A stretch of 64,000 nucleotides of DNA from Chloroflexota bacterium (GTDB lineage Bacteria; Chloroflexota; Anaerolineae; Anaerolineales; UBA4823): contig CP070764.1 in the NCBI GenBank assembly GCA_020349245.1, positions 4,396,372-4,460,371 of the forward strand, read 5' to 3'. The notes under the pieces are model-generated. The model was not told the origin of the DNA, did not search any database, and saw nothing but the letters and a program-made list of their open reading frames with translations. Made by a program: the position numbers and the translations under genes. Below, one piece after another: positions 32,522 to 62,326 of the stretch (the first letter of the stretch is position 1; every line of letters starts with the position of its first letter).

Positions 32522-34486
32522 TCACTCCTGTTCCTTATATAAAGACTTGATTCTCGATTTCAGCTCATCGCGTCGCTTGAGGTAAGCATCTTTGGGCAAT
32601 TCTCCCGCCTGGTATTGATCATCAAGAGCCAGTACCGCGTCGAGCAATGTATCCGCATCGTCTTCATCCTGCACGATGAGTGCATCCTTATCGGGTTCGC
32701 TCACCTCTCGCGACTTCTTTCCGTTGCGATTTTGCAGGAACAACCAGCCACCGGCAATGATTAATGCAACACCGAAGGCAAGCAACCCGATGATCAGGTT
32801 TTTGGATGCACCAAGGACAAATCCTGCACCGGTAGATTGGGGGCGTCCAGAAAGGGATATCACCAAATCAGAGCCAGCTTGAACAAGCTCGCTGGAATAC
32901 ATGTGGTAGGCAGTGCCCTGGACATCGCGGGTCCCCATGTCGCTGAGCTGTTCACTTTGGATTTTTATCCCATCCTCCGGTAAAAGGATAATGACTGCAT
33001 CGACCGGCAGGTTGATCAGCTGTTTGAAATCTAACTTGTTTTTGTACGGCAGATCGTATGAATAAATTACCTGGTGCTGACTCGCGCCAGGGCGGACAGG
33101 GGCATAATCACCAAATCCACCATCCTGTATGACATATCTTTCTCCGCTGGTGCCATCCTGGAATTGAAGATTGGTTGCACCTTCTGGCAGGGAGTATGAC
33201 AGGACAGGCTGACCTTCTTCTGCAGCCACAACAGCTTCGTCGCCAGAATTGGATATGATGTACATCTCGACGACTCTCAATGTATCCGGTTCTAGATATT
33301 CAAACAGCAAATGCAAGCGATCAACCGATACGTTTGAGGTATCGCTGGTGGTGTCGTAATAAGCAATGGAGAGGACAATTCTCGCAGTTTCCGGGTCGAC
33401 TACCGCAATATCCGAGCTGTAAGCGATCCCTTCATGTTCAATGCTGGCCAGGAAAGCCCGCCCGGACGGCATGGGGACATCCTCAAAAGTGAAAGAACCA
33501 TCCGCTGCCAGGGGAGAGTCGGCAGAAAAGGTTTGCTCCATCTGGTCAAACCCGTGCAGGGTAACAGACAGATTAGGTGGAAGGTCGACCCCTGAAATAC
33601 TGGTTACATTACCTTCCACGCTGCCAACGCCGGAGGTAATTTCAACTGTTGGAGCTGCTGGTGTGATTTCGCTGGACTGAGATACCGGGGGAGATGGCGT
33701 GATAGCATCACTACTGACTGCGACTTGGGAGGTAAAAGTCAGCGAACGCAGATATGCGCTAAGAGCCCAGCGTTCTTCAGCTGATAGTTTTTCTGAGAAG
33801 GCGGGCATACCTGCAGATTTCCCATCGCTGATCGCCTGGAAGAGATTTTCCGCAGAAAGGTTTGCCATTAATTTTTGGTCTGTAAAGTTTGTGGGCGGTG
33901 CTAATAGATCACCTGCCTGGAGACCTTTCCCATCACCTTCCTCACCGTGACAGGAGACGCAATTTTCCAGGAATAACTGCTCGCCTTGCAGAATTCTTTC
34001 CGCAGGACTGCTTAAAGCATAAAGGTAAGCGACCACATCCCAGCGCTGGCGATCCGTCAGGCTATTGAAAGGCGGCATGCGCCTTTCCAGGTTGCCCTGG
34101 GTAACTATCCGGTACCATTCAGCGGGTGTGGATTGGCGGGCGATTTCATTGGTTCCCAGGGCTGGCGCGGGAACTGGCAGCTGCCCAGCCATTACACCAT
34201 CTCCTAATCCTGTCACACCGTGACAAGGCGCACATTTTTCTGCATAAGTAGCACTACCGGACGACGGGTTCGGGGGGACCATGGGATATAGCGGTCCATT
34301 CATTGGAGGTTGCGTTGGCTGTTCGAATGGTACCTCGGCCCCTGGAGGGGGGGTGATATCCTCTGCAAGCGAGAACGAACAGGCAGTTAATATCAACAGA
34401 AAGAACAGGGAGCAGAAGATGGCTTTTCCCATCGGAAAGCGGGGCTGGTTGATTGTAATAAAAGGAATTTGATTCATGGAATGCAT
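32522..34486 (-). CDS. dihaem cytochrome c lipoprotein fused to beta-sandwich-like domains, a C-terminal TM helix and a short cytoplasmic tail
   Basis: Lipobox LILTAC, CAPCH and CVSCH in two class-I cyt c units, about 330 aa of Ser/Thr/Val-rich extracytoplasmic region, TM helix LIIGLLAFGVALIIAGGWLFL, and tail LALDDQYQAGELPKDAYLKRRDELKSRI. The start may be the internal M (MGKAIF..) at 34432. Confidence 0.75.
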   Translation of the reverse strand: MHSMNQIPFITINQPRFPMGKAIFCSLFFLLILTACSFSLAEDITPPPGAEVPFEQPTQPPMNGPLYPMVPPNPSSGSATYAEKCAPCHGVTGLGDGVMAGQLPVPAPALGTNEIARQSTPAEWYRIVTQGNLERRMPPFNSLTDRQRWDVVAYLYALSSPAERILQGEQLFLENCVSCHGEEGDGKGLQAGDLLAPPTNFTDQKLMANLSAENLFQAISDGKSAGMPAFSEKLSAEERWALSAYLRSLTFTSQVAVSSDAITPSPPVSQSSEITPAAPTVEITSGVGSVEGNVTSISGVDLPPNLSVTLHGFDQMEQTFSADSPLAADGSFTFEDVPMPSGRAFLASIEHEGIAYSSDIAVVDPETARIVLSIAYYDTTSDTSNVSVDRLHLLFEYLEPDTLRVVEMYIISNSGDEAVVAAEEGQPVLSYSLPEGATNLQFQDGTSGERYVIQDGGFGDYAPVRPGASQHQVIYSYDLPYKNKLDFKQLINLPVDAVIILLPEDGIKIQSEQLSDMGTRDVQGTAYHMYSSELVQAGSDLVISLSGRPQSTGAGFVLGASKNLIIGLLAFGVALIIAGGWLFLQNRNGKKSREVSEPDKDALIVQDEDDADTLLDAVLALDDQYQAGELPKDAYLKRRDELKSRIKSLYKEQE

Positions 34487-41512: not shown

Positions 41513-42775
41513 ATGATGAAGCAGATAAAGTTGATCACTCTGCTGGGTATATTGATGATCGTCGCAGCAAGTTTAGCGGCTTGTGCAGGCTCTGAAGGAC
41601 CTGCGGGTGCCAGTGGACCAGCGGGACCACCTGGACCAGAAGGACCTCAGGGTCCCCCAGGCCCGGAAGGTCCAGTAGGCCCAGTTGGACCCGCTGGAGA
41701 AGCAGGTGCTGGGTCTTTGGGTGCAGAGTATGTTGGCAGTACCGTGTGCAGCGGTTGCCACCTGGACACCTATGAGGTGTTTATGAAATCGGGTCATGCA
41801 TATGAGCTCACCCAGGTAGTTAATGGTCAGCCACCAGAATATCCGTTCACTGAAGTAGCTGAATTACCAGAAGGCTATACCTGGGAAGATGTCTCCTATG
41901 TGATCGGTGGTTATAACTGGAAAGCCCGTTTTCTCAACCAGGATGGGTACATAATCACTGACGCGCCAGGCTCATCAGGGAATGAGGAATATCTCAACCA
42001 GTACAACTTTGCTAATCCAATCGTTGGCACTGAGGCGGGCGGGGTTACCTATCACTCCGGTGAAGAGAACCTGCCTTATGACTGCGGTAGTTGCCACACA
42101 ACAGGTTACAGCCTGACGGGAAATCAGGATGATTTGCCTGGTTTGGTAGGTACCTGGGCTGAATCCGGCATCATGTGTGAGGCGTGTCACGGTCCGGGTG
42201 GTCTGCATATGCAGAATCCCCAGGGTGTACAGATGACTATCGATCGGGGTGCCGAGATGTGCGGTCAGTGCCACCGCCGCGGGGAGATCGAGTCCCTCAA
42301 TGCCAGCGAGGGATTCATTCAGCACCATGAACAATATGGGGATCTCTTCCCGGGAAAGCACGCCGTTCTTGATTGTGTCATCTGCCATGATCCGCATTCG
42401 GGTGTGGTCCAGCTCCGGCAGGATGAAGAGGTACCTACCATGCGCACCCAGTGTGAAAATTGCCACCTGGAACAGGCTCAATTCCAGGACTCGCTGATCC
42501 ACCCGGCGGCAGCTGCCTGCATTGACTGCCACATGCCGCGGATGATTAAATCAGCGGTTGGAGATGCTGAAAAATTCACCGGCGATATCCGCACTCACCA
42601 GGTGCGCATCAATCCTCGACAGATTGAGCAGTTCACAGAGGATAGCAGCACCTCCCTGCCTGAGATAGGGTTAAATTTTGCTTGCCGGCACTGCCATGGT
42701 GTTACGGCTTCAGAGAAAACAGACGAGGAGCTGATCGATAAAGCTGTTGGCTACCATACACCGACGGAGCAGTAA
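41513..42775 (+). CDS. octahaem c-type cytochrome lipoprotein with collagen-like N-terminal stalk
   Basis: Lipobox SLAAC, then 14 uninterrupted G-X-Y triplets. Eight CXXCH motifs: CSGCH, CGSCH, CEACH, CGQCH, CVICH, CENCH, CIDCH, CRHCH. The CEACHGPGGLH context is cytochrome c554-family-like. Confidence 0.88.
   Translation: MMKQIKLITLLGILMIVAASLAACAGSEGPAGASGPAGPPGPEGPQGPPGPEGPVGPVGPAGEAGAGSLGAEYVGSTVCSGCHLDTYEVFMKSGHAYELTQVVNGQPPEYPFTEVAELPEGYTWEDVSYVIGGYNWKARFLNQDGYIITDAPGSSGNEEYLNQYNFANPIVGTEAGGVTYHSGEENLPYDCGSCHTTGYSLTGNQDDLPGLVGTWAESGIMCEACHGPGGLHMQNPQGVQMTIDRGAEMCGQCHRRGEIESLNASEGFIQHHEQYGDLFPGKHAVLDCVICHDPHSGVVQLRQDEEVPTMRTQCENCHLEQAQFQDSLIHPAAAACIDCHMPRMIKSAVGDAEKFTGDIRTHQVRINPRQIEQFTEDSSTSLPEIGLNFACRHCHGVTASEKTDEELIDKAVGYHTPTEQ
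41588..41713 (+). repeat. collagen-like (Gly-X-Y)14 coding repeat
   Basis: [42 protein letters not shown], starting 2 residues after the lipobox Cys. Confidence 0.9.
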
Positions 42776-42836: not shown

Positions 42837-42885
42837 CTTGACTATCATATATAATATTGGGGTAATTCCCAAGTGGAGTTATTTT

Positions 42886-44595
42886 ATGAGAAAGTATTGG
42901 CAGAGGATCAAATCCGGTTTAAAGAATTTCTTCTTTCCCCCAGTAGGTTCACCTCGCTGGGTGCGTATTCTGCCTTATGCCGTGTTGGGTGTCTTAACTT
43001 TAATCGTCTTAACCGGTGCGGTATATGGTTGGGAGTATACGAATTCGCCAGAATTCTGTGGTACGGCGTGCCACACGATGCCTCCTGAATTCACCAGCTA
43101 CCTCACTTCCCCACATGCGCGCATTGATTGTGTCGATTGCCATATTGGGAAAGGTTTTCTCGCCACGCGCGTCTCCCGTAAAGCTGGAGACCTCCGGCAC
43201 ATCGTCGCTACCGCGTTCAATACGTACGAATTTCCCATCCGTGCCCGCCAGCTGCAGCCTGCCCGAGAGACCTGCGAGAAGTGCCACTTTCCTGAAAAGT
43301 TCTCGGATGACAGCTTGCGGGAGATCAAGCATTTCCAACCGAATAAAGATAACACCCCGCTGACTACCTACTTGGTGTTGAAGACCGGCGGCGGCAGCAA
43401 GCGCCAGGGACTGGGTCGTGGTATCCATTGGCATATTGAGAACAAGATCGAATATTTTCCTGTTGATCCAGAGGAACAGGAAATCCCATACATACGCGTT
43501 TACGAAGATGATGGCACGGTCACAGAATATATTGATATCGAATCCGATTTCGATCCACAGGATGTTGCACCCGAGGATATGGTTGAGATGGACTGCATCA
43601 CCTGCCACAACCGCATCACGCACTTGGTGAAGACACCCCAGGAAACGGTCAATGAAATGATGAATCGGGGGATAATCGATCCGGAAATCCCCGAGATACG
43701 CAGGATAGCCACCGAAACGTACGGACAGATTTATGAAACAACCCAAGTAGGCTTGGATGGCATTGCCAGTATCTCCAGCTTCTATGAGACCTATTACCCA
43801 GAATATTACGCAGAGAATAAGGATAAGATCGATACAGCGATCACCGCTCTCCAAGAGGCGTATGCACAAAGTGTATACCCGGAACAGAACTCCGATTGGA
43901 CTACCCATCCCAACAATATAGGTCACAGCGACACGTCGGGCTGCTTCCGCTGTCATGGCGGAAAACATCTCAATGCCGATGATGAAGCGATCCGGCTTGA
44001 GTGCAATTTATGTCATTCGATCCCTGTCATCGCTGGACCTGGAGACTTTGTCTCTCAGATCGAGATCAGCCGGGGTCCTGAGCCCGACAACCACAAGAAT
44101 CCCAACTGGATCACCCTGCATCGGGATGTATTTGATCCGACCTGCAGCAATTGTCATTCCACCGACAATCCCGGTGGAATCGACAATACTTCTTTTTGTT
44201 CGAACAGCGCCTGCCACGGGAATGTCTGGGAATACGCGGGCTTTGATGCACCTGGCTTGCGCGAGATACTGCTTGATCAATTGCCGCCAGAACCCACGCC
44301 CATCGCTCCACCTGAAGGCGAGGCACTTACTTTCACGGGCACGATCGGTCCCCTGTTAGAGAGCAGATGCGGTGCCTGCCATGGAAGATCAAACAGCTTG
44401 AAGGGTTTGGATCTGACGTCCTATGCCAGTCTGATCGATGGTGGCGAAAGCGGTCCAGCGATCATAATCAATGATCCTGCCAACAGTTTGATATTAATCG
44501 TCCAGACCGGTGAGCAACCCCATTTCGCCCAGCTCACTTTGGATGAACTCACGCTTTTGGAAGAGTGGATCGCCAACGGTGCACCCGAGGAGTGA
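42886..44595 (+). CDS. membrane-anchored NapC/NirT-like multihaem cytochrome (8 CXXCH plus 1 CX4CH) with a C-terminal PSCyt1-like domain
   Basis: N-terminal TM, then CGTACH, CVDCH, CEKCH (NapC/NirT-like spacing), CITCH, CFRCH, CNLCH, CSNCH, CSNSACH and CGACH. The start is the ATG at 42886 after gtggag; the track start at 42838 is upstream. Confidence 0.85.
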   Translation: MRKYWQRIKSGLKNFFFPPVGSPRWVRILPYAVLGVLTLIVLTGAVYGWEYTNSPEFCGTACHTMPPEFTSYLTSPHARIDCVDCHIGKGFLATRVSRKAGDLRHIVATAFNTYEFPIRARQLQPARETCEKCHFPEKFSDDSLREIKHFQPNKDNTPLTTYLVLKTGGGSKRQGLGRGIHWHIENKIEYFPVDPEEQEIPYIRVYEDDGTVTEYIDIESDFDPQDVAPEDMVEMDCITCHNRITHLVKTPQETVNEMMNRGIIDPEIPEIRRIATETYGQIYETTQVGLDGIASISSFYETYYPEYYAENKDKIDTAITALQEAYAQSVYPEQNSDWTTHPNNIGHSDTSGCFRCHGGKHLNADDEAIRLECNLCHSIPVIAGPGDFVSQIEISRGPEPDNHKNPNWITLHRDVFDPTCSNCHSTDNPGGIDNTSFCSNSACHGNVWEYAGFDAPGLREILLDQLPPEPTPIAPPEGEALTFTGTIGPLLESRCGACHGRSNSLKGLDLTSYASLIDGGESGPAIIINDPANSLILIVQTGEQPHFAQLTLDELTLLEEWIANGAPEE

Positions 44596-44704
44596 ATCAT
44601 ATAAATGAATCAGGATTAATCTTGAAGATATTATAAAAGCCTTATAATATTTTGATGATCAGTGCGTGAGTTCGACGAGTTGGTATACGCCTAAGGAGAT
44701 AAAT

Positions 44705-45190
44705 ATGGAAGAAGAGAAAGACCAACTTAGCCGACGGAACTTTCTGGCGATTGCGACCGGAGCCATTGGAGGATTGATCGGAATTGTGATGGCTATCCCC
44801 GCAGTGGCTTATGTCGTCGGTCCTGCATTACAACGCAGGACAGCAGAAAACTGGGTCCGGCTCGGTCCAACTTCAAAAGTTGAGCTTGGAATCCCCACCC
44901 TTTTCAAAACCATCATAGAAAGTCAAACTGGTTGGATCGTTGCTGAGGAAGAAATCTCAGTTTATGTGTTGACTGAAGATGGGCGGGAATATATTGCCCT
45001 CTCAAACATCTGCACTCACCTCGGTTGCCGGGTTCGTTGGATTACCGACCAGGGACAATATTTCTGTCCTTGTCACAACGCAGCCTTCGATAAAACCGGG
45101 GAAGTCGTAGCAGGACCTCCGCCAAGTCCGCTCGATCGCTACGAGACCAAGGTTGAGGAAGATCAATTGTATATCCTGTTGGGAGGTTGA
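44705..45190 (+). CDS. qcrA: Rieske [2Fe-2S] subunit of a cytochrome bc-type complex, Tat signal
   Basis: SRRNFLAIATGAIGG twin-arginine/TM region, plus CTHLGC and CPCHNAAF cluster boxes. The RBS aaggag at 44693 precedes the ATG at 44705. Confidence 0.9.
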   Translation: MEEEKDQLSRRNFLAIATGAIGGLIGIVMAIPAVAYVVGPALQRRTAENWVRLGPTSKVELGIPTLFKTIIESQTGWIVAEEEISVYVLTEDGREYIALSNICTHLGCRVRWITDQGQYFCPCHNAAFDKTGEVVAGPPPSPLDRYETKVEEDQLYILLGG

Positions 45191-45191
45191 G

Positions 45192-45851
45192 ATGAGTGCT
45201 GGAATTGGTAATTGGCTTGATGAACGCATCGGTTGGCGCAAGGTCTGGGATGCCATTTTTCTGCGCAAGATCCCCAAGGTAAATTGGTTTTACACCCTGG
45301 GCAGCGCGACCCTCTTCGTGGCAATTCTGCAGGGGGTGACAGGTATTTTACTGACCATTTATTATGTCCCCACTCCGGACCACGCCTATGACAGCGTCCA
45401 GTTTATTACTACCCAGGTTGCCGGCGGCTGGTTTGTCCGCGGCGTCCATCACTGGGGGGCCAGCGCCATGGTGCTGCTCTCAGTACTGCACATGCTGCGA
45501 GTCATCCTTTACGGGGCATACAAATTCCCGCGTGAGGTGACGTGGTTCACGGGAGTAGGGCTGTTGCTGGTTGTGATGGGGTTTGGATTTACCGGTTACC
45601 TTCTACCCTGGGATCAGAAAGCGTATTGGGCGACTACGGTTGGGACCCGCATCGCGGGGGTAGCTCCTTTCATTGGTGAACCGATCCTGCGCATCATGCG
45701 CGGTGGGGAGGAGCTGTCCGCAGTTACCTTGGCGCGATTCTTTGGCACCCACGTCTGGGTCTTGCCGACAATCCTTTTGCTGCTGCTCGGAATCCATATG
45801 TACCTAGTGATCCGCCTCGGTATCAGCGCGGTACCAAAGAGGGAGGAGTAG
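45192..45851 (+). CDS. qcrB: cytochrome b6-type subunit (N-terminal four-helix half of cytochrome b)
   Basis: Haem-ligand helices (FVRGVHHWGASAMV..LHMLR; FFGTHVWVLP), TGYLLPWDQKAYWAT, 219 aa. The ATG at 45192 lies 1 nt after the Rieske stop. Confidence 0.9.
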   Translation: MSAGIGNWLDERIGWRKVWDAIFLRKIPKVNWFYTLGSATLFVAILQGVTGILLTIYYVPTPDHAYDSVQFITTQVAGGWFVRGVHHWGASAMVLLSVLHMLRVILYGAYKFPREVTWFTGVGLLLVVMGFGFTGYLLPWDQKAYWATTVGTRIAGVAPFIGEPILRIMRGGEELSAVTLARFFGTHVWVLPTILLLLLGIHMYLVIRLGISAVPKREE

Positions 45852-45854
45852 AAC

Positions 45855-47978
45855 ATGAAAGAGAAAGAGCGAAAGGAGTATCTCGAGAAGTACAATAAAG
45901 AGAAGGAGAAAGGAGTTCCCTTTTTCCCAGATATCCTCTTTAAAGACGCGGTTGTCTCCCTGGTGATATTTATCGCCCTGGTGGCTCTGGCATACTTTGT
46001 TGGTGCACCTCTGGAACCACGCGCCGATCCGGCAGACACCAGTTACACGCCGCGTCCAGAGTGGTATTTCTTATTCCTGTTCCAGCTGCTGAAATACTTC
46101 CCCGGATCCTTGGAAGTGATTGGCGTTGTTATCATCCCCACCTTGGCGATCATCCTTTTGATCGTCCTTCCATTTATCGATCGTTCAGCCAAACGGCATT
46201 TTATGCGCCGACCAGTGATCCTGGGATTAGTAGGATTGAGTACAGCTGGGATTTTACTGCTCACCTACCAATCCTACCGGGAGATCCCCCCACCCCTGGA
46301 AATTGTCGGAGGTGACCTGACAGCGCTCCTGTACACGGAGAACTGCGCTCCTTGTCACGGACCTTCGCTAACCGTACCGCAAGGTGTCAACTTACACGAG
46401 ATTATCGCCCAGGGGCGCCATGAGGATATGCCCGCCTGGAGTGGAGATCTCACGTCGGATGAAATTGATGCTCTGGCAGGCTTTATTATTTCGCCAGGAG
46501 GCAGCCAGCTGTTCACTGAGAATTGCAGCGAATGTCATGATGTGGCTGATCTGGTCGCCAGCGATCCGATAACCTTAAGGGAGTCTATCCGGCTCGGCAC
46601 GGAATTTGGATCCCATGCAGAGGCGGAGGTTCCGGATTGGACGACAACTATCAACCCCGAAGACCAGACAAAGCTGCTCAATTTCCTGGTCGCTCCTGAT
46701 GGACAACGCTTGTTTGCCACCAATTGTGCCCCCTGCCACGGTCAATCAGTTGCCTATGCTGGAGGCGAGGAAGAATTATTGGAAACGATCAGCCAAGGTG
46801 GAATGCACCTGGATATGCCCCCCTGGCGGGATATGCTGGACGATTCCGAATTGGATATTCTCGCTCGCTATGTGGTCAATCCATCGAATACACCGGAAGG
46901 GGTGGAGCTTTTTCAAACCAATTGTGCAAGTTGCCATGGTGAACGAATTCCCTCCGCTGAAGATGTAGAAGTGGCCCGGCAGATCATCGCTGAGGGCGGG
47001 GGTCACGAAACCATGCCAGTGTGGGGGGAAGTCCTCACCCCTGAACAGCTGGATGCCCTGGTTAACTTTACCGTGGCAGCTGCATCGGGTACCTCCGTTG
47101 AAGTTGGCCAGGAACTCTATGTTCAAAATTGTGCCCCCTGTCATGGAGAATTCGGTGAAGGTGGTCCTAACCCCTCCCGGGCAGGCGATATCATCTTCCC
47201 GATCAGCACCGCAGACTACCTCAAGACCAGGGATGATTTCACCTTGCGCTCCGTCATCGCTCAAGGTCAGCCTAATTTCGGCATGTCTCCTTTTGGCAGC
47301 GCTTTTGGAGGTCCTTTGGAAGAGGAGAACATCGATGCAATCGTGGCATATATTCGATCCTGGGAAGCCAATCCTCCAGTCGAATTGCCACCTGAAGTTG
47401 TTATTGATCTGGGTCAACAGGAAACCGTCACCCTGGACACGAAACAAATTTATGACCAGCTTTGCTCACAATGTCATGGGATTAATGGGGAAGGTGGTGT
47501 CGGACCATCGTTTGAAAACGCGCAATTTCAAGCTACCCGAACCGACACCCAGCTATTTAATGCCATCAATATCGGTCACGAAGCGACTTCCATGATCGGT
47601 TGGGGTGAAGTTTTGAGTGCTGAGCAGATCCAGCAGATCGTTCAGCTTATCCGCGAATTTCGAACTTCTCCAGGTGTCAGTCAACCGCCAACTGGTGGGG
47701 TATCATTTTCTTCCGATGTGATGCCCTTATTTGAGGCGAAGTGCGCTGCGTGCCATGGGAATTTTGGTGGTTGGGATGCCAGTACCTATACTACGGTTCT
47801 GGGAACAGGGAATAACGCTCCCGTGATTATCCCCGGTGACCCAGATAATAGCCTGTTGGCGCAGAAAATGGTTGGCACGCAATCGATTGGCAATATCATG
47901 CCGCCAGCGGGTTTGTTACCAGATGATGAGGTTCAGCTTATCCTGGATTGGATAGCAGAAGGAGCACTCGATAATTAA
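45855..47978 (+). CDS. qcrC: cytochrome b subunit IV fused to seven c-type cytochrome domains (QcrC-like, heptahaem)
   Basis: The N-terminus carries the Qo-site PEWY motif (RPEWYFLFLFQLLK) and 3 TM helices. Then CAPCH, CSECH, CAPCH, CASCH, CAPCH, CSQCH, CAACH; the last sits in a PSCyt1-like module. Confidence 0.88.
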   Translation: MKEKERKEYLEKYNKEKEKGVPFFPDILFKDAVVSLVIFIALVALAYFVGAPLEPRADPADTSYTPRPEWYFLFLFQLLKYFPGSLEVIGVVIIPTLAIILLIVLPFIDRSAKRHFMRRPVILGLVGLSTAGILLLTYQSYREIPPPLEIVGGDLTALLYTENCAPCHGPSLTVPQGVNLHEIIAQGRHEDMPAWSGDLTSDEIDALAGFIISPGGSQLFTENCSECHDVADLVASDPITLRESIRLGTEFGSHAEAEVPDWTTTINPEDQTKLLNFLVAPDGQRLFATNCAPCHGQSVAYAGGEEELLETISQGGMHLDMPPWRDMLDDSELDILARYVVNPSNTPEGVELFQTNCASCHGERIPSAEDVEVARQIIAEGGGHETMPVWGEVLTPEQLDALVNFTVAAASGTSVEVGQELYVQNCAPCHGEFGEGGPNPSRAGDIIFPISTADYLKTRDDFTLRSVIAQGQPNFGMSPFGSAFGGPLEEENIDAIVAYIRSWEANPPVELPPEVVIDLGQQETVTLDTKQIYDQLCSQCHGINGEGGVGPSFENAQFQATRTDTQLFNAINIGHEATSMIGWGEVLSAEQIQQIVQLIREFRTSPGVSQPPTGGVSFSSDVMPLFEAKCAACHGNFGGWDASTYTTVLGTGNNAPVIIPGDPDNSLLAQKMVGTQSIGNIMPPAGLLPDDEVQLILDWIAEGALDN

Positions 47979-48053: not shown

Positions 48054-49568
48054 GTGGATTCACATACTAAAATTGGAAACCGGTTCCTCAAGTCAAATTT
48101 ACGCGCGAAGATCACACTTGGCGTGGTTATCCCTTTGACTTTAATCCTGGGTCTCTTCACGCTTATCGAAGCTTCCCGCCATCGGGATGTTGAAATCTAC
48201 AACTTGACCCTCCTTGCTTCGCAATCTGGAAAGGTGATCGAAAGTTCCTTGCGTAATGCAATGATGGAATCCAATTTTTCCGAGATGCAAAGGATTTTGG
48301 ATGCAGTCGGGGACACTGGTGATTTTAACGTCGTTTATTTGTTGGATAGCAATGGAAAAATTATCTTCTCTCCACATGGGCAGGACGTCGGTAAGCGCTT
48401 AGACAACAGCCATCCTACCTGCCAGGAATGCCATAGATTATCCCCAGAAGCCAGACCGAGCAGTGTTGTGGTTGCAGATGATGGTCAACGAGTCTTCCGG
48501 AGCATGTATCCAATTCGGAACTCCCCAGAGTGCATGACATGTCACGATCCCCAGGAACCCATTATTGGGCTGTTGCTGACGGATATCCCTTTTGCAAAGG
48601 TGGAATCGGCTTTGGGAGCAGACCTCCGGGAAAATCTTTTATGGTGGTTAGGAACGATACTGGCAACAGTTGTCGTGGTTAATGTTTCCCTAAGCAAAAT
48701 TGTCATTGAAAGATTGCAAAGATTATCGCAGGCCTTGACTGGATTTGGTCAAGATCGATTGGGTCTCCGCTTGCCAACCGATGCTCCTGACGAGATTGGT
48801 CAGCTATCAGAAGCCTTTAATAACATGAGCCGGCGTATTGAAGAAGAGGTCGCCGAGAATCTTGCCCTATCCGATCATCTATATCATCAGAGCCAACAGC
48901 GTGGTGAGCTGCTCAAACACTTGATCACTGCACAAGAGGACGAACGCAAGCGGGTTGCACGGGAACTCCATGATGATTTGGGCCAGGCCCTGGGGGCACT
49001 TTCCCTGCAAACCGAGGCTGTCGAACGGCTCATCGACAGTAATCCAGAAGGTGCCATCCAGCAGTTGCGCTTAACCCGGGAACTTATCGATGGCACCACT
49101 GAAAGCATGTATGAGCTGATTTTAGATTTACGCCCTTCTGTACTTGATGATCTTGGGTTACTATCTGCGCTGCAAGCTCAGGCAGAAAGGTGTTTAGAAG
49201 GCAGCTCAATTCAATTCGAGCTGAATACAGACGGCCTGACAGAACGGCTTGAGCCAGAACTTGAGACGACCCTATACAGAATTTACCAAGAAACCCTGAA
49301 CAATGCCAGGCGTCATTCTGGTGCAAGGAATATCTCTATCACCATCTCGATCCATAACGGATATCTCGAGAGTGAGATCCGGGATGATGGTCACGGTTTC
49401 GATTTACAAGAATTGGATACCGACCGCGGTCATCACCATGGATGGGGATTAATCGGGATCAAGGAGCGAGTCAGCCAATGGGGAGGACAGATTGAGATTA
49501 TCACAGATCCAGAGAATGGAACCCTTATCAAATTACGTTTTCCCTTGCTGGAGGTAAATGGTGGCTGA
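48054..49568 (+). CDS. sensor histidine kinase with a periplasmic dihaem-c-type (2 x CXXCH) sensor domain, HAMP, HisKA_3, HATPase_c
   Basis: TM1 (aa about 20-40). The extracytoplasmic domain contains CQECH (48420-48434) and CMTCH (48531-48545). Then TM2, HAMP, H-box ARELHDDLGQ, NNARRHS and GWGLIGIKER. Confidence 0.88.
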   Translation: MDSHTKIGNRFLKSNLRAKITLGVVIPLTLILGLFTLIEASRHRDVEIYNLTLLASQSGKVIESSLRNAMMESNFSEMQRILDAVGDTGDFNVVYLLDSNGKIIFSPHGQDVGKRLDNSHPTCQECHRLSPEARPSSVVVADDGQRVFRSMYPIRNSPECMTCHDPQEPIIGLLLTDIPFAKVESALGADLRENLLWWLGTILATVVVVNVSLSKIVIERLQRLSQALTGFGQDRLGLRLPTDAPDEIGQLSEAFNNMSRRIEEEVAENLALSDHLYHQSQQRGELLKHLITAQEDERKRVARELHDDLGQALGALSLQTEAVERLIDSNPEGAIQQLRLTRELIDGTTESMYELILDLRPSVLDDLGLLSALQAQAERCLEGSSIQFELNTDGLTERLEPELETTLYRIYQETLNNARRHSGARNISITISIHNGYLESEIRDDGHGFDLQELDTDRGHHHGWGLIGIKERVSQWGGQIEIITDPENGTLIKLRFPLLEVNGG

Positions 49569-50847: not shown

Positions 50848-52194
50848 ATGTTTAAAAAATTCATGCTTATTACGGGACTATTGTTGTTTGCCACCATCGT
50901 TTTGGTGGGGTGTGCTGGATCAGAAGGTGCTGAAGGCCCTCCTGGCCCTCAGGGTCCTGCTGGACCAGCTGGCCCTGCAGGTCCACCAGGATCTGGGGGA
51001 ACAGAGCTGACTGAAGATCAGCTTGCTGCGTTAGAAACGGCAGGTAACCTAGGTGGGATCCAATTCCCTGGTTTGGATGAGGTCCGCAGAGGTTGTCCAG
51101 CCTGTCATGTCCTTGTAAATGAGGAGACTGGACAATACACCTTGCCATATGAAGCTCATGAGAGGGCAGAAGCGCGCGGAAAAGAGCATCCAGAAGTCGC
51201 CCCCGATGGTACCTCGCTCGCCGCAACCGAGGATGTAAAGGTGACCACCTGCCTGCAGTGTCATGGGGCAGGAACCGGAGACCGTGCTGGTAAAGGAGTT
51301 ATCGCGCCGTTATCCCTGCGGGATATCGTCCATCCCGCTCATATGTACAGCCAGTGGTTTAAGCTGCACTACGGTGGCAACTGCTTTACCTGCCATAATG
51401 TGGATGGTGAAGGGAATTGGGAGCTTCTCACCGAGAAAGTTGAGGTGAATGAGAAAGGTGTCCCAGATCCTGAAGCGCTGCCAATCCCAGGTGCTGTTCC
51501 CATTGGGGAAGGGGCTACATCAAGCGCACTGTCCGGTTCAGTAGCTGCTGGCGGCCGGTTGTACGACAAATGGTGGACCGAAGCTGGTGTGGATGAGCCC
51601 AGCGGGGATCAGCCTGTGTGGGCAACCCAAACCACAAACACACGCAGCGGTGGGGATACCTGGCGCTGTAAAGAATGTCATGGATGGGATTACATGGGTG
51701 CTGCGGGTGCCTATGGTTCTGGATCTCACTTCACCGGTTTCCCGGGCGTATTCGATGTCCAATCGGAATCCGCTGAGGCGCTTGTGGCAATTCTGGATGG
51801 CAGTGCAAATCCAGATCACGACTTTTCTGCCATGGGAGAAGAAGCTCTCAACAACCTGGTGACATTCCTCAAAACGGGTTTGATTGATATGTCCACTCTG
51901 GTGGATGCCGAGACAAAAGCACCCGTGGGTGGCGATGCCGCGAATGGCGAGGCACTTTATGCTGCCTGTGCCGGCTGTCATGGTGAGGATGGACGAGCAG
52001 TCAACTTCGGTGATGATGAAGAACCGGAATATGTAGCAACAATCGCACTGGACAATCCCTGGGAATTCTTACATAAGGTGAGAGCGGGACAACCTGGCAC
52101 AGCCATGCCCGCCTCCTTGGATCTAGGATGGAGTACAGGTGAATTGCTCGATTTATTAGCTTTCGCCCAAACCTTGCCTGTTGAAGCACCCTAA
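50848..52194 (+). CDS. pentahaem c-type cytochrome lipoprotein with collagen-like stalk
   Basis: Lipobox LVGC, 10 G-X-Y triplets, then CPACH, CLQCH, CFTCH, CKECH, CAGCH. Confidence 0.88.
   Translation: MFKKFMLITGLLLFATIVLVGCAGSEGAEGPPGPQGPAGPAGPAGPPGSGGTELTEDQLAALETAGNLGGIQFPGLDEVRRGCPACHVLVNEETGQYTLPYEAHERAEARGKEHPEVAPDGTSLAATEDVKVTTCLQCHGAGTGDRAGKGVIAPLSLRDIVHPAHMYSQWFKLHYGGNCFTCHNVDGEGNWELLTEKVEVNEKGVPDPEALPIPGAVPIGEGATSSALSGSVAAGGRLYDKWWTEAGVDEPSGDQPVWATQTTNTRSGGDTWRCKECHGWDYMGAAGAYGSGSHFTGFPGVFDVQSESAEALVAILDGSANPDHDFSAMGEEALNNLVTFLKTGLIDMSTLVDAETKAPVGGDAANGEALYAACAGCHGEDGRAVNFGDDEEPEYVATIALDNPWEFLHKVRAGQPGTAMPASLDLGWSTGELLDLLAFAQTLPVEAP
50917..51006 (+). repeat. collagen-like (Gly-X-Y)10 coding repeat
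   Basis: [30 protein letters not shown], starting 2 residues after the lipobox Cys. Confidence 0.9.
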
Positions 52195-52280: not shown

Positions 52281-52796
52281 ATGAAACGTTTTTGGTGGAT
52301 CGGACTCTTTGTTTTTGTGGTCATTGTCATCGTGATCGGAGCAATTCTGACCCGTATGCAGGTTTATGCCGCGCCTGAACAACCGATCGAGTACAGCCAC
52401 CGGATTCACGTGGAGAAAGACATCCAATGTTTATATTGTCATCCGGGTGCTGTTCAATCAGCAGTCGCTGGTATACCTTCCGTGCAAAAATGCATGGGTT
52501 GCCACAATGTAATTAAAGCCGATAGTCCAGAAATTCAGCAGGTTGCCAGTTATTATGATGAAGGCAAACCGATCCCTTGGATAAAGGTCAATCGTCAACC
52601 AGATTTCATCTATTTCAGTCACCTGCCTCACCTCGGCGCAAGTCTCAATTGTGAAACTTGCCATGGTGAGGTTGGCCAGATGGATGTAACGAAACAATTC
52701 GTCAAGATGGATATGGGTTGGTGTTTGGATTGCCATTTGAACCAACCAGCAGAAAAAGTAGGCCGTCTTGCGGACTGCCTGACTTGTCACAAGTGA
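52281..52796 (+). CDS. actA: alternative complex III subunit ActA (membrane-anchored pentahaem cytochrome c)
   Basis: N-terminal TM plus CLYCH, CMGCH, CETCH, CLDCH, CLTCH in 171 aa. It is the first gene of the act cluster. The track start at 52263 is TTG; the ATG is at 52281. Confidence 0.85.
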   Translation: MKRFWWIGLFVFVVIVIVIGAILTRMQVYAAPEQPIEYSHRIHVEKDIQCLYCHPGAVQSAVAGIPSVQKCMGCHNVIKADSPEIQQVASYYDEGKPIPWIKVNRQPDFIYFSHLPHLGASLNCETCHGEVGQMDVTKQFVKMDMGWCLDCHLNQPAEKVGRLADCLTCHK

Positions 52797-52804
52797 AAAA
52801 ATTT

Positions 52805-55018: not shown

Positions 55019-55715
55019 TACAGAACCTCGTTGGGCAATGATCGTTGATTTAGACAGGTGTACTGGATGCCAGGCATGTGTGGTTGCCTGCCAGGCGGAA
55101 AACAATGTACCAACCGTAGGTGAGGCTGAAACGGCAAAAGGCCGCTGGCTCCATTGGATCCATATTGAAAGATATTGGGAAGGCGAGTACCCGAATATCA
55201 AGGCACGATTTATGCCCGTGATGTGTCAACAATGCGGAGAGGCGCCTTGTGAGCCAGTTTGTCCGGTCTTTGCCACCTATCATACGCCGGAAGGATTGAA
55301 TGCCCAGATTTATAACCGCTGTATTGGGACTCGTTTCTGCGGCAGCGCTTGCCCCTACAAAGTGCGAACCTACAACTGGTTTCGCCCAGAGTTTCCGGAG
55401 CCATTGAATGAGCAGCTCAACCCTGATGTATCTGTTCGCTCGCGTGGCTTGATTGAAAAGTGTACATTTTGCATCCAGCGCATACGGCGGGTAGAAATTG
55501 AGGCTCATGCGCAAGGACGTGAACCCGCTGATGGTGAAATCCAACCTGCCTGTGTACAAACCTGTGCTCCCGGTGCATTGGTCTTCGGAGATTTGAATGA
55601 TCCCGAGAGCCGGGTAAGTCAGTTATCTACGAGTCATCGATCCTTCAAACTCCTCGGCGAGCTGGGCACCAGCCCCGGGGTCATCTACCTTAAAGGAGGC
55701 GAAACGAATGTCTGA
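55002..55715 (+). CDS. actB: ACIII subunit ActB2 (4Fe-4S ferredoxin-type, NrfC/PsrB-like)
   Basis: RWAMIVDLDRCTGCQACVVAC, CQQCGEAPCEPVC, CIGTRFCGSACP and CTFCIQR...CVQTC cluster motifs. The GTG start at 55002 overlaps the ActB1 end by 17 nt in another frame. Confidence 0.85.
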   Translation: MNPLDNTEPRWAMIVDLDRCTGCQACVVACQAENNVPTVGEAETAKGRWLHWIHIERYWEGEYPNIKARFMPVMCQQCGEAPCEPVCPVFATYHTPEGLNAQIYNRCIGTRFCGSACPYKVRTYNWFRPEFPEPLNEQLNPDVSVRSRGLIEKCTFCIQRIRRVEIEAHAQGREPADGEIQPACVQTCAPGALVFGDLNDPESRVSQLSTSHRSFKLLGELGTSPGVIYLKGGETNV

Positions 55716-59680: not shown

Positions 59681-59698
59681 AGTGTATCCGGATACACT
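59681..59698. promoter_or_regulatory. perfect 18-bp palindrome agtgtatccggatacact upstream of hexahaem gene A
   Basis: Self-complementary over 18 nt. It ends 3 nt before the aaggag RBS of the ATG at 59712. An identical copy sits at 61228-61245. Confidence 0.6.
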
Positions 59699-59711
59699 CA
59701 AGGAGAATGCA

Positions 59712-60773
59712 ATGAAACATAAACATCTTTTCATCGGGCTATTACTGCTGATCGCTGCCTTGGCTCTGGCAGCCTGTGCAGGAACGCCCGGCCCTGAAGG
59801 ACCGCAAGGTCCTCCTGGGCCAGAAGGCCCCCCTGGTCCAGCTGGTCCAGCTGGTCCTGCCGGTGCTGCCGGTACCGCAGGGGAGGCTGGCGCAGCTGCA
59901 GAGATGGGCGATCTGTCCTGCACTGAATGCCATAATGATACAACCTTGATCGTCGGCAAGAAAACAGCCTGGAGTGAGTCCCTGCATGGTTCTGGTGAAG
60001 CCTACGTGCGCGGGACCAATGCCAGCTGTGCAGGTTGTCACTCAGGGGGTGGTTTTAGCGCCAGGATTGCAGCTGGGCTGAATCCAGATGAGGTTGCGGA
60101 AGGGGATCCCAACCCAACCCGCCAGGACTGCCGAACCTGTCACCAGATTCACGTCACCTATACCGGCGAGGATTGGGCTTTGGAGTCCACCGATCCGGTG
60201 GATTTCTTCGCGGTCGAAGGCGCGACTTATGATGGCGGTGAAGGTAACCTGTGTGCCAATTGCCACCAACCTCGGCGCGTTTTCCCGGGTGCAGTCGATG
60301 GTGTGGTCACCGGTATCTCTGAGCACTGGGGCCCGCACCATGGCGGACAAGCTCCGATGTTGCTCGGTGTCGCTGGTGCGGGTGATGTTGAAGGCAGCCC
60401 CAGCTCGCATTACAACATGGTGGAAGACACCTGCGTGGCCTGCCATATGGGTCCAGATCGAGTTCATACCTATGAACCAAATGTTGCCGTGTGCCAGGAG
60501 TGCCATTCAGGAGCTGAAAACTTTGATATCAACGGCGTGCAAACCGAGGTCCAGGCTCAGCTAGATGAGCTTGGGGACGCTCTGGTCGCAGCGGGTGTAC
60601 TCAGTGAAAATGGTCCTGAAGGACACCCGACTGTCGAGGAAGCTCCCGAGGGCTTGGCCATCGCTCTTTGGAACTGGATCTACATCGCCCATGAGGACAA
60701 GAGCTTGGGTGTCCACAATTCAGCCTACACCAAAGCTCTGCTCGAGGAGGCTTTCGCCGCCTTAGAGCAGTAA
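59712..60773 (+). CDS. hexahaem c-type cytochrome lipoprotein with collagen-like stalk (paralog A)
   Basis: aaggag [25 protein letters not shown] lipobox, 13 G-X-Y triplets, then CTECH, CAGCH, CRTCH, CANCH, CVACH, CQECH. The C-terminus [17 protein letters not shown] helix motif is like NrfA/HAO-type multihaem proteins. The track start at 59682 is a GTG inside the palindrome. Confidence 0.88.
   Translation: MKHKHLFIGLLLLIAALALAACAGTPGPEGPQGPPGPEGPPGPAGPAGPAGAAGTAGEAGAAAEMGDLSCTECHNDTTLIVGKKTAWSESLHGSGEAYVRGTNASCAGCHSGGGFSARIAAGLNPDEVAEGDPNPTRQDCRTCHQIHVTYTGEDWALESTDPVDFFAVEGATYDGGEGNLCANCHQPRRVFPGAVDGVVTGISEHWGPHHGGQAPMLLGVAGAGDVEGSPSSHYNMVEDTCVACHMGPDRVHTYEPNVAVCQECHSGAENFDINGVQTEVQAQLDELGDALVAAGVLSENGPEGHPTVEEAPEGLAIALWNWIYIAHEDKSLGVHNSAYTKALLEEAFAALEQ
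59781..59897 (+). repeat. collagen-like (Gly-X-Y)13 coding repeat
   Basis: [39 protein letters not shown], including a perfect ggtccagct x2 tandem. Confidence 0.9.
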
Positions 60774-61227: not shown

Positions 61228-61245
61228 AGTGTATCCGGATACACT
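61228..61245. promoter_or_regulatory. second copy of the 18-bp palindrome agtgtatccggatacact
   Basis: Identical sequence and identical spacing to the RBS/ATG of paralog B. Confidence 0.6.
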
Positions 61246-61258
61246 CAAGGAGAATGCA

Positions 61259-62326
61259 ATGAAACATAAACATCTTTTCATCGGGCTATTACTGCTGATC
61301 GCTGCCTTGGCTCTGGCAGCCTGTGCAGGAACGTCCGGACCTGAAGGACCGCAAGGTCCTCCCGGCCCAGAAGGTCCTCCCGGACCAGCTGGACCTGCAG
61401 GGCCTGCTGGCCCTGCCGGTACCGCAGGGGAGGCTGGCGCAGCTGCAGAGATGGGTGATCTCACCTGCACTGAATGTCACAATGACTCGGCAGTTATGGC
61501 TGGCATTTCAAATTCATGGTCAGAATCGTTACATGGCAGTGGGGAAGCCACGGCCTATGCAGGCAGCAGAACTTCCTGCACAGGCTGCCATTCTGGCGGT
61601 GGCTTCAGTGCGGCTGTTGAAGCCGGGGTAAGTCCAGTAGGTGAACAGGAGTCAGCGGCTGCGAACCCAAGCCGCCCAGACTGCCGGGCCTGCCACCAGG
61701 TCCACGTTACCTATACCGGTGAAGACTGGGCTCTGGAAACCACAGAAGCAGTGCCGATGGCTGCCTTCGAAGGCGAGACCTTTGACGGTGGAAAGGGCAA
61801 CCTGTGCGCCAACTGCCACCAGGCTCGCCGCGGCGTTGATGAACCCAATGCTGATGGCGATGTTGAAGTAACCAGCACCCACTGGGGACCCCATCACGGT
61901 CCTCAGAGTGCCATGCTGCTTGGCCTGGCTGGCGCGGGTGAAGTTGAAGGCGCTCCCAGCGCACACGCCACCATGGTGGAAGACACCTGTGTAGCCTGCC
62001 ATATGGGTGATGGCAAGGTTCATACCTTTGAGCCAAATGTAGCTGCCTGTCAGGAATGCCACTCCGGTATGGAAACCTTCGATGACACCGGTTTGCAGAC
62101 CGAAGTCCAGGAAAAACTGGATCAACTGGAAGAGGCACTCGTCGCCCGTGGTTGGTTGGACGAAGAAGGTCATCCAGCAGTAGAAGCCATCCCCGCACCT
62201 GAAGCTTATGCTCTGTGGAACTGGATCTACATCGCCCACGAGGATAAAAGCTTAGGTGTCCACAACCCCACCTACACCAGGGCTCTACTAGATGAGTCGC
62301 TGGCTACATTAGGACTTGGGGAGTAA
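61259..62326 (+). CDS. hexahaem c-type cytochrome lipoprotein with collagen-like stalk (paralog B)
   Basis: Same signal peptide and lipobox as paralog A, 13 G-X-Y triplets, then CTECH, CTGCH, CRACH, CANCH, CVACH, CQECH. The track start at 61229 is upstream, inside the palindrome. Confidence 0.88.
61328..61444 (+). repeat. collagen-like (Gly-X-Y)13 coding repeat
   Basis: [39 protein letters not shown]. Confidence 0.9.

Follow-up and report, generated by a model that had tools for sequence, protein, structure and literature searches.

Collagen-like stalks link the lipid anchor to the haem domain in unrelated multihaem lipoproteins of a Chloroflexota bacterium

Why should a multihaem cytochrome begin, directly behind its lipid anchor, like a collagen? 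The question is raised by an octahaem lipoprotein encoded in a stretch of 64,000 nucleotides from a Chloroflexota bacterium (GCA_020349245.1, contig CP070764.1, positions 4,396,372-4,460,371, forward strand), the whole of which was analysed and is called here the window. A first-pass annotation of this DNA had noticed a run of Gly-X-Y triplets in the protein and had considered it a portable module under selection and not an accident of low complexity. The evidence from register, length, codon usage and the diversity of domains that carry the run supports this view: it is a selected module, constrained in length and coupled to the anchor, which is reused on unrelated, mostly multihaem domains. 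As to what the module does, we lean towards a homotrimeric collagen triple helix that would serve as a spacer of fixed length.

The stalk and its position

The octahaem lipoprotein is the translation of an open reading frame (ORF) of 420 amino acids on the forward strand (41513-42775). Its N terminus reads MMKQIKLITLLGILMIVAASLAAC, with a basic n-region and a hydrophobic h-region, and the signal peptide (41513..41584) ends in the lipobox L-A-A-C, in agreement with the pattern [LVI][ASTVI][GAS]C of the lipobox scan. Cys24 (41582-41584) is the predicted acylated N terminus of the mature protein. It is followed by Ala25 and, from Gly26 on, by the stalk, 42 residues that form 14 uninterrupted Gly-X-Y triplets (41588..41713), identified in the translation and by a six-frame scan. 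The remainder (41714..42775) is an octahaem c-type cytochrome domain of the OcwA/MccA/NrfA-type superfamily, as judged from matches to PDB sequences and Pfam, and its 8 CXXCH motifs are invariant across an alignment of 38 sequences. The sequence of the run behind LAAC-A and the number of haem motifs in the translated ORF are exactly those given by the first-pass annotation. When the window was shuffled 100 times by mononucleotides, the longest Gly-X-Y run in any frame had a mean of 3.75 triplets and a maximum of 5, so that a run of 14 triplets is not a product of chance.

The likeness to collagen is also picked up by sequence profiles. Against the Pfam Collagen family (PF01391, gathering cut-off 27.2 bits) the octahaem protein scores 26.6 bits, and the three other stalked proteins of the window described below score 19.7 (pentahaem), 28.8 (hexahaem A) and 30.0 (hexahaem B). 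PF01391.24 is present in the precomputed Pfam list for the octahaem protein, and automated Pfam annotation flags the family on many stalked proteins. Over the stalk, the octahaem family profile matches solved collagen chains of the PDB with E values from 4e-6 to 6e-4. We conclude that a genuine collagen-type (Gly-X-Y)n module lies between the Cys of the predicted lipid anchor and the haem domain.

The same architecture is found in three other lipoproteins of the window, all on the forward strand and assigned by Pfam. One is a pentahaem protein of 448 amino acids (50848..52194) that heads the operon of Alternative Complex III (ACIII) and whose 10 triplets (50917-51006, six-frame scan) follow Cys-Ala. 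The other two are the tandem paralogues hexahaem A (59712..60773) and hexahaem B (61259..62326), each with 13 triplets directly after the lipobox Cys (59781-59897 and 61328-61444). No significant BLASTP similarity was detected among the octa-, penta- and hexahaem domains, every cross-family E value being at least 0.011. The stalk is therefore borne by three haem-domain types (8, 5 and 6 haems), as had been noted at first pass, and these types have no detectable homology to each other.

Conservation among close homologues

The haem domains alone were used as queries, in order to avoid matches driven by the collagen-like segment. For the octahaem family 2865 proteins were retrieved at E <= 1e-5, and the best 120 of them (64-84% identity) were analysed; a protein was counted as stalked if 6 or more triplets came after a recognisable lipobox Cys. 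Among the top matches there were 88 octahaem, 75 hexahaem and 60 pentahaem stalked lipoproteins, 223 altogether, and not one of them (0/223) has a break of register with a second run in a different one. The only imperfection seen was a Gly-to-Ser substitution, itself in register, in an Anaerolineales homologue with 61% identity (locus L003). The lengths differ by whole triplets only and their spread is narrow inside each family: 10-21 triplets (median 13) in the octahaem proteins, with a nearly invariant core of 16 residues, 7-15 (median 9) in the hexahaem proteins and 8-13 in the pentahaem ones, 52 out of 60 of which have 9 or 10.

The composition of the 223 stalks is also that of a collagen, with a Pro-rich X position, Gly excluded from X and Y, and no aromatics. 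Pro occupies X in 59-73% of the triplets, and most Y positions hold Ala, Glu, Gln or Pro; both positions almost exclude Gly (0-4%), and Lys and Arg are rare. In 191 of the 223 the run starts at Cys+2, with an LxxC-A-G junction. There is an octahaem subclade of about a dozen proteins of ~390 amino acids that has neither the Cys nor the stalk; the signal peptide ends 'ASAQEAPFGAEYVG', an N terminus of the signal peptidase I type ('ASAQE'). This parallel absence and the usual start at Cys+2 indicate that the stalk is coupled to the anchor. Relatives of the pentahaem protein with ~490 amino acids, which match only the C-terminal 55-70% of its haem domain, carry after the lipobox Cys a linker rich in Pro, Thr and Glu, similar in length to the collagen-like stalk and without periodicity. 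Collagen-like linkers, Pro-rich linkers and no linker at all thus occur among the relatives, which answers a check proposed at first pass. The outcome then named as fatal to a selected module, orthologs with a hypervariable segment and frequent breaks of the G-X-Y frame, was not found.

These data bear directly on the possibility that nothing in the segment is selected, and that it is low-complexity, hypervariable junk or arose by errors of annotation or assembly. It is true that gene callers mishandle the region (locus L081 and protein P0102 below) and that the antisense strand also reads G-X-Y. Nonetheless, conservation, codon and length data, together with the lack of interruptions in the ORF, both in the window and across dozens of independent assemblies, effectively refute this explanation, to which we give practically no credence.

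The behaviour of the gene callers deserves some detail. As many as 42 of the top 120 hexahaem matches are proteins of ~288 amino acids, apparently stalkless, that start at an internal Met just past the stalk. The one case read at the DNA level (P0313, on two contigs) is a gene-caller split, since the upstream DNA encodes a signal peptide, a lipobox and 13 triplets in frame. Split hexahaem ORFs are seen on two Joint Genome Institute (JGI) metagenome contigs, as an ORF of 55 amino acids plus the 288-residue protein (L081, 3834-4867) and as one of 42 plus the 288-residue protein (L082, 640-1634). Frequent loss of the stalk in the hexahaem family was rejected as an explanation for the short proteins, and the other 41, having the same length and start as P0313, were not counted as losses. 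The N terminus of P0102 resembles a stalk translated out of frame. Given that some stalked ORFs are mis-split, protein databases may underestimate how common the stalk is. The antisense strand of the two hexahaem stalks in the window also reads G-X-Y (59786-59857 and 61333-61413, reverse strand), a trivial result of GGN-CCN repeats by which ORF finders and pattern scans can be misled.

Selection on the protein or a DNA repeat

A periodic peptide may simply betray a periodic DNA. Under one rival explanation, which we regard as unlikely although far from negligible, the stalk is a monomeric, extended and flexible Gly/Pro-rich tether, a polyproline-II-like entropic spacer, and its periodicity is the legacy of a 9-nucleotide repeat. 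The DNA shows no recent repeat of this kind. Tandem Repeats Finder detects only weak 9-nucleotide arrays in the octahaem stalk (score 36, 78% matches), and short arrays of 9 and 18 nucleotides with scores of 32-65 in the four stalks of the window. In 26 octahaem stalks all four Gly codons and all four Pro codons are about equally used. For the invariant peptide GPEGPQGP, 13 homologues use 12 distinct DNA strings, with a third-position entropy of 1.8-1.96 bits at 5 of 6 fourfold-degenerate sites, so the synonymous sites are saturated. An origin by microsatellite-type slippage was rejected because of the weak repeat scores and the mixed synonymous codons. The pattern is that of a stalk whose amino acid sequence is under strong purifying selection.

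The octahaem and hexahaem stalks of the window have a motif of 14 amino acids in common. Third positions within it are identical in just 4 of 14 codons between the octahaem gene and hexahaem A and in 7 of 14 for hexahaem B, and recent transfer of the stalk between these genes at the DNA level was rejected as the source of their likeness. The history of the two hexahaem genes is different. About 110 nucleotides covering the Shine-Dalgarno region and the signal peptide are 100% identical between them (59682-59790 versus 61229-61337), with a synonymous divergence of 0 in the signal peptide. The rate of synonymous substitution (dS) is 0.45 in the stalk, against 0.022 for the non-synonymous one (dN; 13 synonymous and 2 non-synonymous differences), and reaches about 2.8 in the haem domain (dN 0.26). 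This rise of dS along the pair implies that the 5' module was homogenised later than the haem domains diverged, and the gradient points to gene conversion or recombination. Heterotrimers of hexahaem A and B as a general feature are unsupported: the homologues at L203 and L204 are single-copy, and no tandem pairs were seen among 100 loci.

Spread of the module

How far does the stalk reach beyond close homologues? An exhaustive HMMER search against representatives at 50% identity gave 2072 relatives of the octahaem domain, the best 150 of which were inspected. Among these, 26 carry at least 6 triplets, in uninterrupted runs of 6-41, and in nearly all 26 the run lies just past the lipobox Cys and before the first haem motif. 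At 37-58% identity of the haem domain the stalk sequences are unrelated to those of the window (e.g., GKDGAQGPAGANGKDG..., GPKGDKGDPGPVGPKGDKGDPG..., GVDGMDGTVGTDG...) and include GKDGAQG..., GPKGDKGDPG... and GVDGMDG..., with the periodicity kept. That the periodicity outlives a complete turnover of the sequence speaks against the flexible tether introduced above.

The comparison of a haem-domain phylogeny with the presence of the stalk, another check proposed at first pass, was carried out by neighbour-joining on 182 single-domain octahaem homologues, 108 of them stalked. The tree has a stalkless root and brings the stalked proteins together in what is essentially one large clade; at least 9 changes of state are required, and the nested losses mostly coincide with loss of the lipobox Cys. 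In species-representative genomes, stalk-bearing octahaem homologues belong to metagenome-assembled genomes (MAGs) of Anaerolineales, Anaerolineaceae, Caldilineaceae, Promineifilaceae and Ardenticatenaceae. Runs of 7 triplets or more were absent from the homologues examined in Methanoperedens, Gemmatimonadota and Planctomycetota; those read from other phyla have extra domains, a linker rich in Pro and Ala, or just a plain signal peptide. A stalked hexahaem lipoprotein with 36% identity to hexahaem A was found in Bacteroidota, in a Cyclobacteriaceae MAG (JAAUQL010000126.1, locus L040, 3931-4974), next to a stalkless octahaem-like gene. Its 12 triplets begin at the Gly before the lipobox Cys (GCE GPE GPM GPA GAD GTN GTD GTN GVD GKD GVD GNV). 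The module is thus not confined to Chloroflexota or to monoderm envelopes.

For a search blind to the attached domain, metagenomic DNA was scanned for the pattern Cys-Ala-Gxx-Gxx-Gxx-GPx-GPx-GP. This sample amounts to at least 120 loci and at least 117 unique proteins, and the pattern, being derived from the window, favours the same lineages. Among the 117 unique proteins listed, 99 have a signal-peptide-like hydrophobic stretch ahead of the Cys, and 83 of these 99 (84%) have CXXCH motifs downstream. The 83 haem carriers among the matches listed comprise 43 of hexahaem type, 21 of octahaem type, 5 of pentahaem type, 4 with nine haems or more and 10 others, so that at least five haem-domain types bear the stalk. 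Another 13 of the proteins listed lack a haem motif; Pfam recognised a beta-propeller, a cupin and a metallo-beta-lactamase fold in non-haem carriers, and no match in the remaining ones scanned. Two of the four carriers with at least nine haems were scanned with Pfam and both belong to the MtrC/OmcA family (PF22113 with 181 bits at L088 and 157 bits in the other, PF22112 in one of them). Among the matches listed, these MtrC/OmcA-type decahaems have stalks of 6-10 triplets. The octahaem protein of the window gives a partial match of 33.8 bits to PF22113 and does not have the ten-haem architecture of MtrC/F domains II/IV. Judging from these matches, stalked multihaem lipoproteins are widespread in Chloroflexota-rich metagenomes.

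The MtrC/OmcA connection extends to model proteins. In Shewanella OmcA (4lmh_A, residues 23-41) and UndA (3ucp_A, residues 29-47) the sequence GGSDGKDGEDGKPG(V/P)VG(V/L)(N/D) contains six G-X-Y triplets (GGSDGKDGEDGKPGVVGVN), which in the native proteins we take to lie directly after the lipobox Cys. By its sequence this tail amounts to an abbreviated stalk with the same periodicity, on cytochromes that are models of extracellular electron transfer.

Two further observations concern collagen-like sequences near or next to octahaem domains. In a Caldilineaceae MAG (CALNXY010000003.1, locus L011, 10275-13000), giant collagen-like frames lie ~1.2 kb downstream of a stalked octahaem gene, with runs of 61, 38, 37, 139 and 20 triplets; between some of the runs there are Asp-rich modules with a Cys on either side (C-WDMNHNGQADADEDINGDGKVDTWD-C), which look calcium-binding. 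A similar 'CWDLNGNG' module comes after the stalk in distant octahaem proteins (P0161, P0177, P0189, P0202, P0210 and P0216).

The octahaem domain

The haem domain itself is most similar to OcwA (6i5b; E 8e-20 with the single sequence and 2e-24 with the profile), followed by MccA (4rkm, E 3e-13), the S-layer undecahaem of Carboxydothermus ferrireducens (E 2e-10) and, at about 1e-3, the octahaem nitrite reductases. Pfam finds Cytochrome_C7, Paired_CXXCH_1 and Cytochrome_C554 in it. OcwA is a terminal nonahaem reductase at the cell surface of the Gram-positive Thermincola potens and has been grouped structurally with NrfA, MccA and cytochrome c554 (PMC6703420). An AlphaFold2 monomer of the octahaem protein, modelled from the 38-sequence alignment and without haems, was poor (mean predicted local distance difference test, pLDDT, 55.9; predicted template modelling score, pTM, 0.34), as was to be expected of a haem-free monomer, and was not used for claims about the fold. 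Foldseek returned MccA and the C. ferrireducens undecahaem as top matches of this model, with template modelling (TM) scores of only 0.23-0.28.

A proposed triple helix as a spacer

The structure for which such a stalk seems made is the collagen triple helix, and somewhat in favour of the proposal, with its folding, trimeric state, role as a ruler and partners read from the sequence, we would imagine the following. On the outer face of the cytoplasmic membrane three chains, brought together by their lipid anchors, would wind their stalks into a triple helix, the membrane-held lipidated N termini supplying the high local concentration needed for trimerisation. The rise of collagen is ~0.29 nm per residue. 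The octahaem rod (13-14 triplets) would then be stiff, ~1.5 nm wide and 11-12 nm long, and those of the pentahaem and most hexahaem proteins (9-10 triplets) would measure ~8 nm. Such a rod would turn the cytochrome into a trimer, keep the haem domain at a defined height over the membrane and cluster three haem chains. The raised haem domains might exchange electrons with the tall extracytoplasmic haem arms of the quinol-oxidising complexes encoded beside them (the NrfH-like and Rieske/cytochrome b proteins, and ACIII) and could also reach distal partners in the wall zone of Anaerolineales-type Chloroflexota.

What favours the helix over a flexible tether is mostly the strictness of the pattern. 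A triple helix requires Gly in every third position and Pro at X, and a flexible tether does not; exact phasing is not needed for the latter, yet there is no break of register among the 223 stalks, Gly is kept out of X and Y, and the length varies little within each family. There are well-known cytochromes on flexible tethers (cytochrome c_y, ActE), and the Pro-rich, non-periodic linkers of the other lipoprotein cytochromes of the window and of the ~490-residue pentahaem relatives can be counted for a tether here as well. The same linkers indicate that an alternative was available, so that the strict phasing of Gly points to an additional structural constraint. The tether also draws support from the mere six triplets of OmcA and UndA, from the shortness of the stalks and their lack of Lys and Arg, and from the low confidence of AlphaFold2.

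Several of these points and some others weigh against the triple helix. No trimerisation domain, coiled coil or other, was recognised by Pfam beside the stalk, and lipid anchoring or contacts between haem domains might substitute for a nucleation domain. The stalks are short (8-15 triplets), have almost no Lys or Arg and are probably without hydroxyproline; neither a 2-oxoglutarate-dependent oxygenase nor a prolyl hydroxylase was present in the window ORFs scanned with Pfam, several, including those at about 26.7-30 kb, being unscanned. To judge from Pro-Pro-Gly peptides, an isolated triple helix this short would be only marginally stable. The pLDDT of the stalk in the AlphaFold2 monomer is mostly below 50, and the folding of the stalk is something that we infer from its sequence. 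OmcA and UndA, with their tails of six triplets, are handled as monomers, which shows that a short GXY tail need not come with an obvious triple helix. OcwA, the closest solved relative, is a mixture of monomer and dimer and not a trimer (PMC6703420). A rationale based purely on spanning the wall of monoderms is weakened, and was judged too narrow, by the Bacteroidota locus and the MtrC/OmcA-type carriers.

A role of the stalk in adhesion or ligand binding, for example to a mineral surface, a sheath, an S-layer component or another cell, as in the Scl and Lcl adhesins, was considered very improbable. Some carriers are MtrC/OmcA-type surface cytochromes, and the NCBIfam models of Scl1, Scl2 and Lcl do match the stalk, but with 16-26 bits against cut-offs of 325-500, which reflects composition only. 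Besides, a stalk next to the membrane, between the anchor and a globular domain, is the least exposed part of the protein.

Genomic context

The stalked octahaem gene opens a row of five genes with short spacings, in agreement with the first-pass claim that it heads a Rieske/cytochrome b operon (functions are from Pfam and operon calls rest on gene spacing only). It is followed on the same strand by a NapC/NirT/NrfH-like membrane-anchored multihaem cytochrome of 585 amino acids (42838..44595; PF03264, NCBIfam NrfH), a Rieske [2Fe-2S] subunit (44666..45190; PF00355), an N-terminal, b6-like cytochrome b (45153..45851; PF00033, 167 bits) and a C-terminal, subunit IV-like part of cytochrome b fused to about six monohaem c domains (45855..47978; PF00032 and six PF13442 stretches). 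The successive spacings are gaps of 62 and 70 nucleotides, an overlap of 38 and a gap of 3. A promoter and terminator scan of this operon gave counts no better than those of shuffled sequence. The NrfH-like neighbour recurs beside octahaem homologues in four other loci (L002, L010, L012 and L016), and the complete Rieske/cytochrome b set at one other locus.

On its upstream side the octahaem gene adjoins a histidine kinase gene of divergent orientation. The opposite strand upstream encodes a two-component system of NarL type and, in full, the System I cytochrome c maturation cluster (CcmABC, CcmE, CcmF, CcmH and a thioredoxin-like protein). Downstream of the octahaem operon come a second two-component system and then the pentahaem gene, after which the ACIII operon continues with ActA, a split ActB, ActC (NrfD family), ActD and ActE. 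ActB is divided into two overlapping genes, a molybdopterin-oxidoreductase-like one (52718-55018) and a 4Fe-4S part (55002-55715), with no single fusion. The ACIII operon is followed 3' by a trihaem lipoprotein, the hexahaem pair and a heptahaem lipoprotein, in this order. A sensor histidine kinase with HAMP and HisKA_3 domains (48054-49568) sits between the bc-type and ACIII operons and has two CXXCH motifs (CQECH and CMTCH) between its N-terminal hydrophobic segment and HAMP, a region that is presumably extracytoplasmic. This arrangement suggests a haem-c-based redox sensor that might regulate both operons.

All seven predicted lipoproteins of the window are c-type cytochromes, four with collagen-like stalks and three with Pro-rich, non-periodic linkers. 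The trihaem lipoprotein (58286-59332, forward strand) and a dihaem lipoprotein within the ccm cluster (32522-34486, reverse strand) have linkers that read SAPQSLPSGPTPIPTLIP... and SFSLAEDITPPPGAEVPFEQPTQPP..., respectively, so that collagen-like and Pro-rich spacers coexist in one genome. The heptahaem lipoprotein (62556-64000, its ORF continuing past the end of the window) has after the lipobox Cys an unusual Cys/Pro-rich linker, GTAGPTAEATPCPVPEPCPECPQVSCPDCPECPEPVV, a third kind of spacer, which is possibly bonded by disulfides or metal. Its haem part is distantly related to that of hexahaem B (E 1e-8).

The vicinity of the Ccm genes brings up another candidate, that the stalk is a signal for sorting, export or maturation (for surface exposure, for retention or for passing the protein on to the cytochrome c maturation machinery) or a protease-resistant or wall-interacting segment, with geometry secondary. 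Lipoprotein sorting signals in other phyla do lie at Cys+2, where the stalk begins, its link to c-type cytochromes is strong, and the System I genes are located just upstream. We find it improbable all the same: known signals have a few residues and not 24-120, three lipoprotein cytochromes in the window do without the stalk while 13 proteins without haem motifs carry it, and the stalk sequences diverge between clades with the periodicity alone kept.

Significance and comparison with known systems

If the stalks are triple helices, there would be a rule, readable from sequence, for keeping large redox proteins a set distance away from the membrane, by means of a trimeric rigid spacer and not a floppy tether, and its main carriers, Chloroflexota, are abundant and hard to culture. 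Electron exit from Rieske/cytochrome b and ACIII, the width of the wall zone and the correspondence between stalk length and partner height would become testable, and minimal triple-helix biophysics and design would gain a large natural set of very short, hydroxyproline-free collagens poor in Lys and Arg. A broader idea, plausible though we would not quite bet on it, is that short triple helices free of hydroxyproline are a widespread, hitherto unrecognised device of bacterial respiration. Octa-, hexa-, penta- and MtrC/OmcA-type decahaem cytochromes would then be rigid trimeric 'lollipops' of defined height, rulers of the electron-transfer distance in the extracytoplasmic space of Chloroflexota and of other phyla, with three haem chains per rod, and the tails of OmcA and UndA degenerate or minimal versions.

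Bacterial collagen-like surface proteins and tethered cytochromes are each already known; no description of a collagen-type stalk starting at lipoprotein position +2 on several unrelated multihaem families was found in the full-text literature. With OmcA and UndA the proteins described here share the condition of lipoprotein multihaem cytochromes with G-X-Y triplets. The run in the former is shorter, poor in Pro and rich in Asp and Lys, the fold of the haem domain is unrelated and the host is diderm. Full-text literature searches did not find the OmcA/UndA tail discussed as collagen-like, and the periodicity appears to sit unremarked in these model proteins. OcwA has nine haems, a cleaved signal peptide and no collagen-like segment, in contrast to the eight haems, lipid anchor and stalk of the octahaem protein.

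In its general plan the system resembles Rhodobacter cytochrome c_y, the Bacillus lipoprotein cytochrome c551 and ActE, in which an N-terminal membrane or lipid anchor is followed by a spacer and by a cytochrome domain that serves a quinol-oxidising complex. This architecture is encoded here together with quinol:acceptor oxidoreductases (Rieske/cytochrome b and ACIII). The linkers of the c_y/c551/ActE type are Ala/Pro-rich, flexible and non-periodic, and the proteins are mono- or dihaem and monomeric. With a strictly G-X-Y linker and a cargo of 5-10 haems, the stalked proteins are related to them by a working analogy and not by membership. Among eukaryotic proteins, collectins, ficolins, C1q, class A scavenger receptors and ColQ-tailed acetylcholinesterase have stalks of 11-60 triplets that trimerise a globular functional domain and hold it away from an anchor. 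The collagen stalk of H-ficolin has about 11 triplets, so that its length overlaps those described here. Eukaryotic stalks differ in having hydroxyproline, nucleating neck coiled coils or Cys knots, and roles in immunity or at the synapse, and the likeness is one of analogy only, no homology being implied.

A bacterial parallel is provided by the 'lollipops' Scl1 and Scl2 of Streptococcus, BclA of Bacillus and Lcl of Legionella. They have in common with the stalk an uninterrupted (Gly-X-Y)n with Pro at X and no evident hydroxylation system, joined to a globular domain and varying in length by whole triplets. Their stalks are much longer, they function as adhesins or on the spore surface, they are anchored by LPXTG or in the exosporium, and their globular domain is often N-terminal, whereas the stalk described here is short (8-21 triplets) and acidic, starts at position +2 of a lipoprotein and bears a multihaem redox cargo.

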